Of a stretch of 44,209 nt of DNA, positions 35,942 to 42,205 are shown in pieces (within the stretch, counting starts at the first letter, position 1; each line of letters opens with the position of its first letter). The position numbers and the translations under genes were made by a program. Under the pieces are notes generated by a model that did no database searches, was not told the DNA's origin, and was given only the letters and a program-made list of their open reading frames with translations. Origin of the DNA: a virus; the UHGV virus genome UHGV-0168748; one strand, given 5' to 3'.

Positions 35942-36397
35942 TCAAGGACGGCTATGTCCACAGTTCTTAAAGAAAGTTTCGGGCAGACGCTCACCATCTA
36001 CAATAAAGTTAGCGGCTTCGTTACCGTTGATAGCCACACCGAAGCTTTTTGCATTAGCGATAGCATTAGCGAAGGCAACCCAAGCTTTTTCTGCTTTGTC
36101 GCTGCCGTCAATAGTGGGAATGATATAGTTTTTGCCGTTTACGACAATACTCATTTCGTTGTCTTCGGCATTAGTTGAACCGACCGGTTCACCGTAATAC
36201 CAAACCATGCGACCGTAAAACTTACGATTAGCCGTTGCGGTATCGCAGTTGATAGACAAGCTGTTCCCATTTTCGTCTTCGATTTCGTAAACAGCATTTC
36301 CCGGACTTTGAAGTCCTTCCCAGCTTCCGATTGCGGCGTAAGCGTTATTGAGACCGAAAGTTAAAAGGGTTACTAAGAATGCGATAAAAGTTTTCAT
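35942..36397 (-). CDS. small secreted protein, paralogue of 35434-35904
   Basis: Signal peptide; conserved blocks SINCDTA, SIVVNGKNY, AWVAFANAI. Confidence 0.55.
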   Translation of the reverse strand: MKTFIAFLVTLLTFGLNNAYAAIGSWEGLQSPGNAVYEIEDENGNSLSINCDTATANRKFYGRMVWYYGEPVGSTNAEDNEMSIVVNGKNYIIPTIDGSDKAEKAWVAFANAIANAKSFGVAINGNEAANFIVDGERLPETFFKNCGHSRP

Positions 36398-36446: not shown

Positions 36447-36470
36447 CACCTAAGTAATATATATCTGAAA
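36447..36470. promoter_or_regulatory. conserved 24-bp intergenic element, copy 1
   Basis: CACCTAAGTAATATATATCTGAAA; 23/24 identical to 40771-40794; flanked by hairpin AGAGTTA-ATCG-TAACTCT. Confidence 0.45.
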
Positions 36471-36489: not shown

Positions 36490-36520
36490 ACAAAAAAGAA
36501 AGTGGGAGCAATGCTCCCAC
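36490..36520 (-). terminator. rho-independent terminator
   Basis: GTGGGAG-CAATG-CTCCCAC, U-run on minus strand. Confidence 0.6.
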
Positions 36521-36525
36521 TGCGT

Positions 36526-37107
36526 TCAAACATCGAACCGATACAAACGAGAACCTACCAGAAACTCGGTGTTCAGTTCTATCCACTCGAGTAAGTCTCC
36601 GAGCGGTAAACGCTTCGGGTTTTCTAACTCGATAGTGGCAACTGGATAGGAGTTAACCAATTCCGTAATGGACTCGATACCCTCCTGCGTTCCGTCGTCG
36701 TCTAACGTAATACTGAAGGGCATATCCGTACGTTCAGCACTCGGATTATACAGGTTGATTTTACTGGCTTGTACAAACGCCGAGTAGTCGTCCCGAATGA
36801 TCCTTACGTCAGGCAGTAACGATACCCACAAAAGTCCACCCGCTGGTGCTTTACGTCGTGCGTATTGCACAAACGGCGATGCAGGAATCTTATCCATAGC
36901 GCAGCAGATACAACGTAGCGTAGGGCCACGAGGATCGGTGTGTTCTACAGCAAAGATACCTATCGGGTCCAGACTACTTTTCTGTTTTACCAGAAAGGCC
37001 AGTACCGTGTCCGCCTTTTCGGGTAAGGAAAGCTCAATTCCTTCTAGCTCCCCATTGACGAGGTTTTCCAACCATACGTCTTTTCGCATTTCTATTAATC
37101 GGTACAC
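36526..37107 (-). CDS. hypothetical protein
   Basis: 193-aa track ORF. Confidence 0.55.
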   Translation of the reverse strand: MYRLIEMRKDVWLENLVNGELEGIELSLPEKADTVLAFLVKQKSSLDPIGIFAVEHTDPRGPTLRCICCAMDKIPASPFVQYARRKAPAGGLLWVSLLPDVRIIRDDYSAFVQASKINLYNPSAERTDMPFSITLDDDGTQEGIESITELVNSYPVATIELENPKRLPLGDLLEWIELNTEFLVGSRLYRFDV

Positions 37108-37119
37108 GGTACCACCTCA

Positions 37120-37893
37120 CTATTGATTAAGTTTTACATCTGCAATAAACAGCAACTGTTTACCATGTTGCTGCACTTCTTTCCAACCTAGCTTCATAGC
37201 AGCGTCAACAACATCTATCATGCTGTAACGAGAGATCAACGAGGCTGATTTTGTTCCTGACATTAAGTAGAGCGGCTCATTAGGGCAACGGTCACGGGCG
37301 TCAGGGAGTTCTTGAATGATTGATGATCCTTCAGGTACGTTAACAACACTAATCACGGTAAATGGCCTTTTGTGCGTTAGATAAATACGAAAACCGACAT
37401 GTTTAGACTCATGAAAGATTTTCTTCACGACCGCGTCTTTTAATGTCGTCTGAACTTCGACCCCAGGCAATATCATGGATTTACGGGAAACGAAACAACG
37501 ACTATTTTCGACTGTGGAGAAATAATTACGTATCGGTAAGCTGTTATTGTTATCGCGCAGTCTTTTGCTTAAGAGATCATAATCCATCTCTTTAACTTCT
37601 TCTAACCACAGATGTGCACGTTCAACGTAATACAGGCCAACCGTGTGGTAACTTAATACTTTGCCTGTACTTAGTTGCCAGAGCTTAACGCTGAGTGAGT
37701 CGGGTTTATATCGGCGATATTCCCCACGGGTATGATTGACACGTTGGTAAAGACCTACGTCTTCTGTTGGTGCGGATTCGACGGACCGCAATTGGAGTGT
37801 TCGATTATATTTATCGTCCAGCAACAACGAGGCCAGCGAGCCATTAATCACGTAGTGTTCTGATTCAAAAAGTGCATCTAAATGGATTTTCAT
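37120..37893 (-). CDS. member A of paralogous family with conserved C-terminal tail
   Basis: Ends ...AAMKLGWKEVQQHGKQLLFIADVKLNQ; start moved to ATG 37893 with AAGGA RBS. Confidence 0.55.
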   Translation of the reverse strand: MKIHLDALFESEHYVINGSLASLLLDDKYNRTLQLRSVESAPTEDVGLYQRVNHTRGEYRRYKPDSLSVKLWQLSTGKVLSYHTVGLYYVERAHLWLEEVKEMDYDLLSKRLRDNNNSLPIRNYFSTVENSRCFVSRKSMILPGVEVQTTLKDAVVKKIFHESKHVGFRIYLTHKRPFTVISVVNVPEGSSIIQELPDARDRCPNEPLYLMSGTKSASLISRYSMIDVVDAAMKLGWKEVQQHGKQLLFIADVKLNQ

Positions 37894-37960
37894 TTCTATT
37901 TCCTTCTTAACAAAAGCCGCGACTAAAGCGCGGCAGTTAGAGAAAGTGTATTTTCGTTTA

Positions 37961-39088
37961 TTAAAGGTCAGCAACAAACAACAGCTGACTGCCGTACGAT
38001 TCGACAGATTTCCAACCGTAATCTTTACCGATCGTCGTTAAATGACCGGTATTTAACTTTTTGTCAATCGACCGCAATTGCATCATTAGCGTATTGGATT
38101 CTGCCGCATCAAGTAACAACGCAGGTTCTTTTTCAGTGCGATCATCCGCTTTCGGGAAGAAACTGTAATATTGACTTTTGGGTAGATCGATTGACAACGT
38201 ATAATTTTTCTTTGTAAGGAATAACGCCATCCCTTCGAAATTGCAATCGAAACGATATTCCCAACCCGCTTCTGCTAAAACGTCTTTTAGCATTTCCATG
38301 ACTTTAAGCTGGTTAACGCTAGGCAGTCGGTAAATTGCAAGACCACTTGGGAAAATGCGTATACCGTCGACGACACTATCGGTGGTTTCGTCAATAAGTT
38401 CAGGATAGCGTTGTGAGAAAATGTGATCGCTCTTGCTTTTCTCTTCGACGTCACGAATGAATTGTGCTAATTCTTCTTTCAATGTACTTGTCATTTCTTT
38501 CTCCACTACTTTACGTTCAATACACACTGCGTAATACATTACGTCGTTAAATTCGGTTACGAGCCTTAGTCCTGTGTCGATGAACTCGTACGGAAACCCA
38601 CCGTTAGGGGTGCGGCGTGTAGGTACGTTTTGGGATATTTCTTGAATTACGTGAATCTTCTCAATTTCAAATCCACAGAGTTCTTCCAGAAAAGTCATAT
38701 CCTGCTGGTCGAGTAATTTCACACCCTCGTAAGGCAGCCGCCTGATTTTATACTCCAGTAATGAGAATTTCTCCGATGGGTAAACACGATACATTAAACG
38801 TTGATTTGATTTTAACTCACGGACGTAAAGTTTGTCGTAGGGTAACGACTCATTTGCGTATAGAGTGAATTGAAAATCCTCAATGCGTTCGTCGAAAACA
38901 CAAATATCCACGGGTGCACAGATTGGTTCTGGCAAAGCGTTAACGGTGCAACCAAAAACGCGCCCGAACAAATCATTTTGCGTAGCACACGGGATATTGA
39001 GTAGTATTTTCGGTACACCTTTCTTGTAATCTTCGAAAAGTAATTCAAGATAGAGTCTATGCGACGGTGAGTTATTGTAGATATGCAT
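37961..39088 (-). CDS. member B of paralogous family with conserved C-terminal tail
   Basis: Ends ...TIGKDYGWKSVESYGSQLLFVADL. Confidence 0.6.
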   Translation of the reverse strand: MHIYNNSPSHRLYLELLFEDYKKGVPKILLNIPCATQNDLFGRVFGCTVNALPEPICAPVDICVFDERIEDFQFTLYANESLPYDKLYVRELKSNQRLMYRVYPSEKFSLLEYKIRRLPYEGVKLLDQQDMTFLEELCGFEIEKIHVIQEISQNVPTRRTPNGGFPYEFIDTGLRLVTEFNDVMYYAVCIERKVVEKEMTSTLKEELAQFIRDVEEKSKSDHIFSQRYPELIDETTDSVVDGIRIFPSGLAIYRLPSVNQLKVMEMLKDVLAEAGWEYRFDCNFEGMALFLTKKNYTLSIDLPKSQYYSFFPKADDRTEKEPALLLDAAESNTLMMQLRSIDKKLNTGHLTTIGKDYGWKSVESYGSQLLFVADL

Positions 39089-39099
39089 GATATCATCCC

Positions 39100-39654
39100 T
39101 TAAACATTATAAGCTAAGAACAACAATTGTTTACCTACTTTACGCACGGTATACCAGCCATGCGCTTTAGCGACAGCGATGAGGGTTTCCCAGTCGTCAG
39201 CATTACAATGTTCTTTCCGAAGTTGTTCAAACAACGCTTCAGCTTCGTCTTGATTTAACAGCTTACCCGGATTGTCTGGCGTGCAATCAGTAGGGCTTGG
39301 AAAGAAGCTATACAGACGCGCTAAGAGAAAATCAACCGAATACTTAACACCTTCCTTATAAACCAACACAGATGTTTTCCCTTCGTGGAAGAAACTGCCT
39401 GTTTTCCAAGCGGTATCTCCCAGTAAGCTTCGAAGGTAAGACGTAAACCCACTTCTGAAAGAGATATCCGTGTTACGTGGAATTCTGCGGAACATCGGTG
39501 TTTCTCCCACCGCTTGTACGGTTACACCCACTACCATCACGTCCGGTGAGATAATGGTATTAGTCAGTACGGTATAAGGACAAGTAAAGTAGTGTTCACC
39601 AACACCCTTTTCAAGAGATTGAACGATTTCATTTTTCAATTTAGCGTGATACAT
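39100..39654 (-). CDS. member C of paralogous family with conserved C-terminal tail
   Basis: Ends ...AVAKAHGWYTVRKVGKQLLFLAYNV. Confidence 0.6.
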   Translation of the reverse strand: MYHAKLKNEIVQSLEKGVGEHYFTCPYTVLTNTIISPDVMVVGVTVQAVGETPMFRRIPRNTDISFRSGFTSYLRSLLGDTAWKTGSFFHEGKTSVLVYKEGVKYSVDFLLARLYSFFPSPTDCTPDNPGKLLNQDEAEALFEQLRKEHCNADDWETLIAVAKAHGWYTVRKVGKQLLFLAYNV

Positions 39655-39681
39655 GATTATTCTCCTTTTCGGTTTTTTTAC

Positions 39682-40434
39682 TTACGCGTGTTTTAACAAT
39701 AACAAGCGGTTATTGGTAATTTCAGCAGCGCCCCAGCCTCTAACAGTAGCGATGCTAAGTATATCGACTTCATCACGGTATTTCAACATCGGATCGTTGG
39801 GATTGATTTCGATCACGTGAGTATTTCTGGAAATCGTTTCTACTTCTGGGATTTCTTTTACTATATCCGAAGCAATTAACTCAAGAACGTACAGCTCCTC
39901 GAAGCATTTAAAGTAGATATGGACGCCGTATAACTTATCGTTATCGTCCCTTAACGGGTAGAGATTAAAACCAGGACCCAGTAACGTTAGTTCCGCATTG
40001 TAAGGTACTTCAAATTCACGATGAATTAATGCAATTCCGTGGCGGAATAAAGGGAAGTGGGCAAATACAGACATTAATGCCCACTGTTCTGTTATAATGG
40101 TCGGGTCATGGCTAAGCGGTCCAATGTTAGCCAGATTTTCGATAGCGTAGCGTACTGAATTAAAATCGCTTTCGGTAATGATACTGTAAATAAGCATCAC
40201 ACCAGTTTCGCTGTTAAGAATACTGAATACGCTATTAGCATAAGCGGTAATCCGATATTTATCCTCTGGTTCGTCAGTAGGAACGTTTTCAGGCTTAACC
40301 GTTTTGATTTCGACTAATTTAGCAGGGTATTTTGAACCTACTAAATCTTCAACGATAGGAGAGGCGATCTCTAAATAGGTCTTAGCAAAGAGTTCATCTA
40401 AGTATTGGTTAACAAAAACTTCTGCTGTCAGCAT
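39682..40434 (-). CDS. member D of paralogous family with conserved C-terminal tail
   Basis: Ends ...IATVRGWGAAEITNNRLLLLKHA. Confidence 0.55.
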   Translation of the reverse strand: MLTAEVFVNQYLDELFAKTYLEIASPIVEDLVGSKYPAKLVEIKTVKPENVPTDEPEDKYRITAYANSVFSILNSETGVMLIYSIITESDFNSVRYAIENLANIGPLSHDPTIITEQWALMSVFAHFPLFRHGIALIHREFEVPYNAELTLLGPGFNLYPLRDDNDKLYGVHIYFKCFEELYVLELIASDIVKEIPEVETISRNTHVIEINPNDPMLKYRDEVDILSIATVRGWGAAEITNNRLLLLKHA

Positions 40435-40493
40435 GGATTATTCTCCTAAAAAGGAATAAGGAAGTCACTACGTTCCTCTGGGAAGAGTATGTC

Positions 40494-40555
40494 GGTATAC
40501 TACGTATACCTCCGCTATTTATATCCGTATACATAATGCCCCCTACCCCCTACCG
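40494..40555. promoter_or_regulatory. cluster of GTATAC half-sites and CCCCCTAC direct repeat
   Basis: GGTATAC-TAC-GTATACC, CCGTATAC and CCCCCTACCCCCTACC within a 385-bp intergenic region. Confidence 0.35.
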
Positions 40556-40610
40556 GTATCCCGAGTAGCAGAATAAAGGGACAATCTGTAAATTTTAAGT
40601 AATACTATGA

Positions 40611-40688
40611 TTACCGAGGAATAGCTGGGTTGTAGCGTTTGAACTGTTCGATGACTTCGTCCAATCCGCCTTTCTTCTCAGTAGACAT
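40611..40688 (-). CDS. possible 25-aa small ORF, not in ORF track
   Basis: Hand-translated MSTEKKGGLDEVIEQFKRYNPAIPR with AGGAAACAGACC RBS. Confidence 0.25.
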   Translation of the reverse strand: MSTEKKGGLDEVIEQFKRYNPAIPR

Positions 40689-40770
40689 TGGTCTGTTTCC
40701 TAATAACGTGGTAACTCCGTTTCGAAAGAAACGTGTCCGTAGGGACTGAACTCGCACTTCAGTCCCTATT

Positions 40771-40794
40771 CACCTAAGTAAAATATATCTGAAA
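40771..40794. promoter_or_regulatory. conserved 24-bp intergenic element, copy 2
   Basis: CACCTAAGTAAAATATATCTGAAA; adjacent perfect 10-bp hairpin AGGGACTGAA-CTCGCAC-TTCAGTCCCT. Confidence 0.45.
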
Positions 40795-40820: not shown

Positions 40821-41786
40821 ATGGAGAAATCCAGTGTTGATTTTTTCTCAATTGGTATCGTCGCGGAAGACAAACCCCGTGGTACAGATCGGGTAAAAGT
40901 GATACCAATTGAAACCAACTTTGCTAACCCTACTGTGGTGCAATCTGTTTCTTCAGCAACTGAAAAGACGCATGAAACGTCTGGTGCAACAGATAACCTA
41001 ACCATTAAGACGGGTAACACGATAACAGCAAAGTGGTGGAAGTTTAACTCCAACCGAATTAATTCCCCTGACGTTAAACGAGAAGACTACGTTATCTTGT
41101 TACGTTTGGGGAAAACCGATATTTATTTTTGGATTGATTTGAATTTCGCTAACGTTAAGCGATTAGAAGATGCGGTTTATGCGTGGTCGGCTGACCCCGA
41201 AAACCAAATGGCGGATGACCTGTCCAATGCGTATGTGTTGAATGTCTCGACGATTGACAAACATATCACGCTAAGAACATGTATGGTGAATGGCGAGAAA
41301 GCGGCGTGGTTATTCCAGTTTGACAACGCAAACGGATCGTGGCAATGCGTTGACCATAAAGGGAACAAGTATTACATTAACTCGGTCGAAGATGATCTCG
41401 GGTTTGAGAATGCGATGCTATCAAAAGTGAACATCAACAAAGAAGATGCGTTCATTTATTCAAAGCGTTCTATTAACCTGGAAACAAAAACGATTAATGA
41501 GAAATGCGAAGTTCGCAATACAGAAGCATCGAAATCCGTTACCTTTAAAACACAAACCTGGTTAACGGAAGCGGGGAGTTCGACCACCTTTAAAACGCCG
41601 AACTTTAAACAAGAAGGGAATGAAGCACAATTCACCGGTAATCTTGAAGTGGCTAAAAACTTCAAGTACGGCGGTACTGGGGAAGGTGTGGGTATCTTTA
41701 CGGTTAAAGATGCGGTTATTGCGGGCATTACTTTCAGCGTACACATCCACGACGGTGTACACGGTCCTACTTCGGGTCCACGGTAA
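40821..41786 (+). CDS. hypothetical protein with His-rich C-terminal tip
   Basis: 321 aa; ends FSVHIHDGVHGPTSGPR; tail fibre or spike tip is speculation. Confidence 0.55.
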   Translation: MEKSSVDFFSIGIVAEDKPRGTDRVKVIPIETNFANPTVVQSVSSATEKTHETSGATDNLTIKTGNTITAKWWKFNSNRINSPDVKREDYVILLRLGKTDIYFWIDLNFANVKRLEDAVYAWSADPENQMADDLSNAYVLNVSTIDKHITLRTCMVNGEKAAWLFQFDNANGSWQCVDHKGNKYYINSVEDDLGFENAMLSKVNINKEDAFIYSKRSINLETKTINEKCEVRNTEASKSVTFKTQTWLTEAGSSTTFKTPNFKQEGNEAQFTGNLEVAKNFKYGGTGEGVGIFTVKDAVIAGITFSVHIHDGVHGPTSGPR

Positions 41787-41995: not shown

Positions 41996-42205
41996 ATGTC
42001 TATTAAAGAGTTCTCTTCTGCTGAGCATATCCCAGAAGAGTTTAAGAAAATTGGTAACGTTAGTGCCTTTGGTGATACCGTTGACCACGTAACCGGTAAA
42101 CTGGCTGCTGAAGCCGAGAAAATCGGTGGTGACGCATTTAAAGTTATCGGTATCTCTGGTAACAACAAACTGCACGGCAACGCGATCGTCTACAAAAAAG
42201 ACTAA
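41996..42205 (+). CDS. DUF1471 (YhcN/BhsA/McbA-like) domain protein lacking signal peptide
   Basis: GDAFKVIGISGNNKLHGNAIVYKK matches the DUF1471 core; GGAGAG RBS; starts MSIKEF with no hydrophobic leader. Confidence 0.6.
   Translation: MSIKEFSSAEHIPEEFKKIGNVSAFGDTVDHVTGKLAAEAEKIGGDAFKVIGISGNNKLHGNAIVYKKD

Follow-up and report, generated by a model that had tools for sequence, protein, structure and literature searches.

A small undescribed domain shared by fast-evolving tandem genes of a probable SPN3US/phiEaH2-branch jumbo phage

In the jumbo phages SPN3US, phiEaH2, CR5 and Phobos, the slot between a baseplate gene and the gp176 orthologue is occupied by a single gene (SPN3US gp175, phiEaH2 gp097, CR5_165 and Phobos gp176, respectively), which features a conserved domain at the C-terminus of its product and a promoter-like motif upstream. 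The same slot was analysed in the UHGV virus genome UHGV-0168748, a stretch of 44,209 nucleotides (nt) of viral DNA which is referred to as the window in the following. Here, it holds an array of four minus-strand genes, designated D, C, B and A in the direction of reading, followed by gene E. While the described phages possess one copy of the domain, the lineage of about 225 kb represented by the window has three clear copies, in C, B and A, in addition to gene D. A first-pass annotation, made from the sequence alone, had described four genes with unrelated N-terminal bodies which share a C-terminal tail of about 25 residues. The analysis reported here reveals that the shared element is an autonomous folded domain of 65–85 amino acids (aa) rather than a 25-residue tail, and that the domain family is undescribed beyond anonymous PHROG clusters. 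The genes concerned are as follows:

39682..40434, minus strand: gene D, 250 aa; presence variable, membership of the domain family unproven
39100..39654, minus strand: gene C, 184 aa; the minimal full-length paralogue
37961..39088, minus strand: gene B, 375 aa; the most variable gene
37120..37893, minus strand: gene A, 257 aa, counted from the ATG
36526..37107, minus strand: gene E, 193 aa; conserved last gene of the unit, SPN3US gp176 orthologue by synteny, without the domain

The four minus-strand open reading frames (ORFs) of the array are present with the sizes and positions first proposed for them, and independent gene calls on six contigs recovered the same series of 250, 184, 375 (381) and 257 aa. 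The ORF list lengthens gene A to 285 aa by a TTG start, and at least 26 orthologue clusters of this gene feature 257–259 aa; gene C is represented by about 70 orthologue clusters with identities of 42–83%. Pairwise BLASTP connected B with C (1.6e-14 over about 175–180 residues, the whole of C aligning with the C-terminal half of B), A with B (1.8e-10 over 142 residues) and A with C (3.8e-5 over 64 residues), A and D reaching 0.02. Likewise, hhalign yielded probabilities of 97.7% for C and B (174 columns), 96.8% for A and B (103 columns), 97% for A and SPN3US gp175 (68 columns) and 95% for B and SPN3US gp175 (95 columns), and a hidden Markov model (HMM) of the C family matched gene B at 9e-15. 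The assumption of unrelated N-terminal bodies is not tenable in view of such alignments, which cover about 175 columns between B and C, 103–142 between A and B and 95 between B and gp175, the latter being the exception among bodies that have otherwise diverged from the gp175 type beyond recognition by BLAST. Judged by these comparisons, A, B and C are diverged tandem paralogues of one ancestral gene of the SPN3US gp175/phiEaH2 gp097 type. Gene E, which matches phrog_20879 at 1.3e-29, was considered as a fifth family member and ruled out, as it gave no profile signal.

The domain follows the consensus [LI]PDxxDR[ST]xN[DE]PxYL[MI]S, a variable helical insert and AKxxGWxxVxxxGxQLLF. In an alignment of 118 sequences, the invariant or near-invariant columns (numbered as in C) are P119, P129, L132, G166, W167, V170, G174, Q176, L177, L178, F179 and A181. 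The signature residues P...P.(Y)L, located in the first loop and strand, and GW..V...G.QLLF, located in the hairpin, are present in all three paralogues A, B and C. Their domains are located as listed below, with E-values from a module HMM to which the sequences of A, B and C themselves had contributed:

39103..39309, minus strand: domain in C (aa ~116–184), E 1e-35
37964..38182, minus strand: domain in B (aa ~303–375), E 2.5e-23
37123..37326, minus strand: domain in A (aa ~190–257), E 1e-27

An independent family of standalone domains was aligned by hhalign with A at 98.9% and with C at 98.1%, and PHROG searches gave E-values of 9.3e-11 for A (PHROG 26772, on the C-terminus), 1.7e-5 for B and 0.28 for C. 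The proposal of a common C-terminal module is thus sustained for A, B and C by BLASTP and hhalign; it does not reach significance for D, and its length has to be extended from about 25 to about 65–85 residues. An AlphaFold model of C built with the 118-sequence alignment reached a predicted local distance difference test (pLDDT) score of 79.9 and a predicted template modelling score of 0.71, with pLDDT 85–96 in the domain region, while prediction from the single sequence was unusable (pLDDT 40). In this model, the domain consists of a conserved loop, a strand (130–133), two helices (135–147 and 155–164) and a beta-hairpin (169–173/176–180). The GW...QLLF motif, which had attracted attention as the core of the tail, corresponds to the beta-hairpin, and the helix expected ahead of each tail is confirmed for C by the two modelled helices. 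The loop PDxxDRSxNEP is acidic to polar and conserved, and the domain as a whole is near-neutral to acidic, with a median isoelectric point (pI) of 6.2 and a net charge of about -1.

Gene D requires separate treatment. Against a module HMM built without D it scored E 4.5, and against a D-free HMM of 76 diverse representatives E 0.26, with the last ~29 residues alone being aligned; the same HMM of 76 representatives ranks D 4th of 456 window ORFs, right behind A, B and C. Comparisons by hhalign resulted in P 0.009–0.022 and probabilities of 2–5%, restricted to the 24–29 terminal residues, and neither the PHROG search with D nor an IMG/VR search for its relatives returned a match. Of the signature residues, D retains P, GW and LLL only. 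Its C-terminus evolves more slowly, with a nonsynonymous divergence (dN) of 0.24 vs 0.52. Together with the position of the gene, the GW pair and the hydrophobic last strand, this slower C-terminus suggests, but no more than suggests, membership of the family. A relationship of D to SPN3US gp174, which lies in the equivalent position, was rejected, and matches of D to PsaL and CARF were spurious and far under the cut-offs.

The first-pass annotation had not recognised the motif from any characterised family, and none has been found to contain it. Searches of Pfam, NCBIfam and PADLOC with the four array proteins and gene E revealed nothing above noise. Sequence-profile searches of the PDB, for which the domain and the B and C families served as queries, gave a best E of 0.07 (2kzv, an uncharacterised protein) and nothing else, and Foldseek found no significant structural neighbour of the C model in the PDB. 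In BFVD, only uncharacterised family members from Erwinia and Klebsiella jumbo phages were matched, and the four PHROG clusters in which the family is present (26772, 33648, 24489 and 18480) are all annotated as "unknown function". Scans of 75 family representatives against Pfam and PHROG yielded isolated matches and no consistent fused domain; Pfam models of helix-turn-helix (HTH) and winged-helix (wH) domains matched 1 of the 75 and none consistently. With regard to anti-defence, Pfam, its Tad2-like model included, matches no family member, and no library dedicated to such functions was searched. Mentions of "gp175" and "gp372" in the literature refer, under other numbering, to a phiKZ protease and a phiKp24 capsid protein and are irrelevant to the family.

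When 1.84 billion representatives were searched exhaustively with HMMER, only 81 clusters were detected (E <= 1e-3). Among the 72 that were reconfirmed, the domain constitutes a standalone protein in 35, is located C-terminally in 28 and N-terminally in 9. The notion of a modular family is therefore sound as far as a conserved module joined to fast-diverging and differing bodies is concerned; it has to be amended, since about half of the members are standalone and some carry the domain at the N-terminus. Being autonomous and mobile, the domain probably has an activity of its own and is not a mere tag. The named carriers are Seoulvirus, Derbicusvirus, Iapetusvirus, Maaswegvirus, phiEaH2-like phages and one Shewanella jumbo phage, and every carrier genus that was looked up belongs to the Chimalliviridae; no cellular homologues of the domain were found. 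Across genera the domain is conserved at 25–40% amino-acid identity, with DNA that cannot be aligned. FBKp24 MOC16_gp372 (119 aa) and an unannotated ORF of Shewanella phage SXP01 (129 aa) represent the standalone form, and PhiEaH1 gp105 features the domain at its N-terminus, all with hhalign probabilities of 98–99%. Unlike the genes of the gp175 slot, standalone and N-terminal members reside in other neighbourhoods, such as a tRNA cluster or the vicinity of genes for glutaredoxin, dNK, ADP-ribosyltransferase (ART)-like and Tad2-like proteins; for the standalone copies, this accessory-type content further includes TMK and HNH genes.

Some of these neighbourhoods deserve mention in their own right. 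The standalone gene of FBKp24 (3944–4303 of L005) lies inside a tRNA cluster, an unusual site for a protein gene: there are eight tRNAs in 1.1 kb, and the gene is preceded by one of the suppressor type. In phages of about 280 kb (L020, 5348–5905; L022, 5347–5904; L021, 4009–4272), the standalone gene is preceded by a 185-aa YRG...STS...QHE protein, whose match to the DRAT ADP-ribosyltransferase model (E 3.6e-4) falls short of the cut-off, and followed by genes for glutaredoxin, DUF7484 and a dNK/thymidylate kinase. The idea that the 185-aa protein is the split-off "body" of the standalone members was rejected, as it is unrelated and ART-like in look. A Tad2-like anti-Thoeris gene (66.9 bits, Pfam) is located near the standalone domain gene of L021. 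In GenBank records of the Salmonella phages SPFM7, 15, 9, 12, 20 and 8 (P0133–P0141), apparent gp175 "variants" proved to be SPN3US gp175 cut into ~20-residue blocks whose order is reversed, an artefact of the records rather than biological variation.

The window is the metagenomic contig ENA ERZ1026973 NODE_75, and the surroundings of the array point to the lineage of the phage. The adjacent baseplate gene (40821–41786) is the orthologue of SPN3US gp173 and phiKZ ORF164, being 74% identical to its phiEaH2 counterpart and ~62% identical to those of SPN3US-group phages, and a neighbouring 420-aa protein is orthologous to the essential tail protein gp171 of SPN3US (PMC5105663). At the nucleotide level, the locus matched no GenBank phage, while the gene order of the array is shared with contigs of 220–227 kb from Enterobacteriaceae-associated samples. 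On this basis, the window phage can be placed by sequence as an undescribed member, of about 225 kb, of the SPN3US/phiEaH2 branch of the Chimalliviridae. Host-like genes were observed on both sides of the array. Two tandem YfjT-like genes (PF27224; 35434–35904 and 35942–36397, minus strand) encode proteins with signal-peptide-like N-termini and vary between two copies and one among relatives, and a 69-aa YdgH/BhsA-like gene (PF07338) lies at 41996–42205 on the plus strand; both are host-like families of secreted or stress proteins in a jumbo phage.

Within an otherwise conserved tail and baseplate neighbourhood, the array is the fastest-evolving stretch, and its copy number varies. Among three relatives, flanking genes are 91–97% identical, against 45–73% for D, C and B; taken singly, C ranges over 45–100% and B over 45–62%, and D is 49% identical or absent, being missing from one sub-lineage (L016–L018) and 47–49% identical in L019. 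Values of dN in the array (0.09–0.66) exceed those of the flanks (0.02–0.06) by a factor of 5–20. Where measurable, the ratio of nonsynonymous to synonymous divergence (dN/dS) of the array genes is 0.1–0.37, which indicates constrained coding genes that evolve fast and not pseudogenes; for the domain, it amounts to 0.08–0.31. Inside each gene the bodies diverge more than the domain, alleles of B being 71–93% identical in the domain and 39–54% in the body. A comparison with contig ERZ27259903 k141_10682 (L012) illustrates how such alleles are exchanged: the two sequences are 100% identical at the nucleotide level through C and A, and gene B is only 32–57% identical in its 5' part and 68–87% in its 3' part, the replaced segment extending from just past the C stop to just past the B stop. 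This is a clean allelic exchange of a whole-gene cassette between otherwise identical genomes.

In addition, the layout of the locus suggests a common transcription unit, for which the following elements were located:

40773..40791, minus strand: promoter-like motif CAGATATATTTTACTTAGG at the head of the array leader
40435..40772, minus strand: leader of ~335 nt with stem-loop, micro-ORF, G-tract and hairpin, conserved across genera
40610–40687, minus strand: micro-ORF MSTEKKGLDEVIEQFKRYNPAIPR of 24–25 codons inside the leader
37916..37934, minus strand: terminator- or attenuator-like element in the B–A gap of 67 bp, consisting of a GC-rich hairpin and a T-run
36501..36521, minus strand: intrinsic-terminator-like hairpin with a 9-bp stem (6 GC pairs), then TTCTTTTTT; predicted to close the five-gene unit
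36449..36467, minus strand: the other copy of the promoter-like motif, which precedes the ATG at 36397 by 48 nt and opens the next unit (YfjT-like genes)

Lying between the promoter-like motif with its leader and the terminator-like hairpin, D-C-B-A-E would form one minus-strand unit. The AT-rich motif CAGATATATWTTACTTAGG(TGA) of 19–22 nt occurs in two exact copies in the window, with 0.01 expected. In CR5, Phobos and the relatives of about 225 kb, a conserved copy precedes the domain gene, and diverged forms lie just upstream of SPN3US gp175 and phiEaH2 gp097. IMG/VR genomes of this group (loci L023–L041) contain 1–3 exact copies, always 46–54 nt upstream of a small ORF; one ORF downstream of the motif is HTH-like in look (...LVGCSPSQISAI). 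The motif could serve to map the presumed early regulon of SPN3US-group phages. Conservation of the leader was established by alignment with SPN3US, phiEaH2, L017 and L019. It comprises the stem-loop GGGACTGAA...TTCAGTCCC at 40741–40766, the G-tract GGGGGTAGGGGG and, at about 40490–40513, the hairpin GGTATAC-GTA-GTATACC, in which compensatory changes have occurred in SPN3US (GGTATCC/GGATACC) and phiEaH2 (GGTGAC/GTCACC). The leader abuts gene C in L017, which is devoid of D, and gp174 in SPN3US and phiEaH2. A diverged but similar copy of the micro-ORF is found in L017 (MFAEQKDGIEEVVKLFRHYSPYLPR); L019 and the SPN3US group have none, and it may represent a leader peptide or a remnant gene. The hairpin between B and A is possibly an internal attenuator, which would allow the expression of A and E to differ from that of D, C and B. 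According to a review of jumbo-phage RNA polymerases, conserved AT-rich motifs of ~10 nt mark early promoters of the virion RNA polymerase (PMC7598289). From the motif, the terminator layout and this promoter class we infer that D-C-B-A-E is expressed early and as one unit.

With regard to function, the only experimental clue, a negative one, comes from the virion of SPN3US, for which 83 proteins were identified by mass spectrometry (PMC5105663, Table S4). The list passes in sequence from 171 and 173 to 193, with gp174–gp192 being absent; gp175 is thus not among the virion proteins, although the neighbours gp171 and gp173 are, gp173 with only 4–8 spectra. This absence disfavours both a baseplate-anchor reading and virion packaging, the latter having been among the options put forward from the sequence. 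The preferred reading, to which we would assign slightly less than an even chance, is that of a non-virion and probably early accessory operon in which the domain binds a common partner and the bodies provide strain-specific specificity. The array proteins would accordingly act as cytoplasmic accessory factors, probably expressed early. Their domain would bind one common partner, which is more likely a protein than DNA given the median pI of 6.2 and the net charge of about -1. The fast-diverging bodies would add strain-specific specificity, the likely arena being an arms race over host takeover or counter-defence, and the standalone copies of other phages would hold the partner-binding activity alone. 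The term "partner-binding module" hence appears to be the most plausible description of the domain.

Several points weigh against this accessory-operon reading. Its functional part is derived from anatomy and evolution only. Absence from the virion comes from one proteomic study and applies to the SPN3US orthologue only, and a very low-copy protein could be missed there; the early timing depends on a motif class described in a review. As dN/dS is below 1, positive selection is not demonstrated, and relaxed constraint combined with recombination may be the source of the divergence. Finally, no significant similarity has been demonstrated for D, whose status as a carrier of the domain is unproven.

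Among the alternatives, a winged-helix-type nucleic-acid-binding domain would turn the family into phage transcription regulators or autoregulators, with the bodies as effector or sensor parts. The succession of strand, helix, helix and beta-hairpin in the C model would fit such a fold, as would standalone, N- or C-terminal placement, which resembles that of mobile DNA-binding domains, and the long conserved hairpin-bearing leader could be the operator. Yet no winged-helix core gave a significant structural match to the C model, the putative recognition helix (xxIxxxAKxxGW) is mostly hydrophobic, and several of the winged-helix neighbours bind protein rather than DNA. Since the lack of a consistent HTH or wH match among members and the near-neutral to acidic pI of 6.2 further weaken DNA binding, this explanation is considered unlikely. 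A still smaller chance is given to a Chimalliviridae-specific docking module which would tether the bodies, or act by itself as a small binder, at a structure that only nucleus-forming phages possess; the ChmA shell, the import machinery and the early infection vesicle are examples. It is retained because the named carriers are chimalliviruses only and because the protein is non-virion and the domain autonomous, not DNA-binding-like in character and without cellular homologues; if true, the phage nucleus would have its first modular targeting domain.

The location of the array next to a baseplate gene and the tail protein gp171, together with whole-gene cassette exchange in identical backgrounds, which is typical of receptor-binding proteins, could equally suggest exchangeable baseplate or tail host-range proteins, anchored to the baseplate by the C-terminal domain and binding receptors by their bodies. 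However, anchors of receptor-binding proteins are usually N-terminal, and the conserved end is C-terminal here. The array is transcribed divergently from the baseplate gene; its products are small and devoid of fibre, beta-helix or coiled-coil signatures as well as of tail matches in PHROG or Pfam, and the C model is a compact alpha/beta protein. Standalone copies, moreover, are remote from tail modules and have tRNA and nucleotide-metabolism genes as neighbours. As the SPN3US orthologue is missing from the 83 virion proteins, while gp173 was seen with as few as 4–8 spectra (PMC5105663), a host-range role seems distinctly improbable. Chimallivirus heads contain many ejection proteins and large packaged paralogue families (PMC5105663), and the modular architecture would be compatible with a capsid-targeting module that loads variable cargo, comparable to T4 internal proteins or jumbo-phage ejection proteins. 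Nevertheless, gp175 is absent from tailless heads as well as from virions, about half of the clusters are standalone and hence without cargo, a folded domain of 70 aa is no short cleavable signal, and a context of prohead-protease-type processing is not evident, all of which leaves very little room for packaging. The least credence is given to a 3' segment whose DNA sequence is maintained mainly to anchor cassette recombination by homology and not for a protein function. The higher nucleotide identity in the 3' part of the swapped gene B (68–87% vs 32–57% in the 5' part) would agree with it, but the breakpoints lie at gene boundaries in 100%-identical flanks and outside the domain, which folds confidently and has a dN/dS of 0.08–0.31. 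Amino-acid conservation across genera with unalignable DNA largely refutes such an anchor.

Most genes of nucleus-forming jumbo phages are unannotated, and their roles toward the host or the phages' own compartments are poorly known. The locus combines a compact, confidently folding new domain, confinement to the Chimalliviridae so far and the most rapidly diversifying operon with cassette swapping, and is thereby a tractable starting point in the search for a host or defence target, or for a docking site of the phage nucleus. SPN3US represents an established genetic model for such work. Even if the function proves to be ordinary, a new family definition of the Pfam type and a corrected reading of four genes are gained.

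Compared with known systems, the array follows a familiar general pattern, namely one in which the members of a viral multigene family combine a small conserved domain with variable bodies and exchange cassettes within an accessory hotspot. Poxvirus ankyrin/PRANC and similar viral multigene families possess a conserved C-terminal docking domain. They resemble the array in their tandem, fast-diversifying paralogues within a variable region, each with a variable N-terminus and a small conserved C-terminal domain; this is a resemblance only, without relationship in sequence or structure, and the domain of the array differs in being frequent as a standalone protein as well. Bro-N, KilA-N and ANT are shuffled small domains of regulators in large DNA viruses. 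Like these and the HTH fusions of AcrIIA1-type Acr-Aca proteins, the domain described here is small, mobile, found in any position with variable partners and located in accessory regions, but it shows no profile match to them and is not basic. T4 internal proteins are likewise variable proteins with a short common element. In their case, this element is an N-terminal, cleaved signal of ~10 residues on virion proteins, whereas the array features a folded C-terminal domain whose SPN3US orthologue is non-virion.

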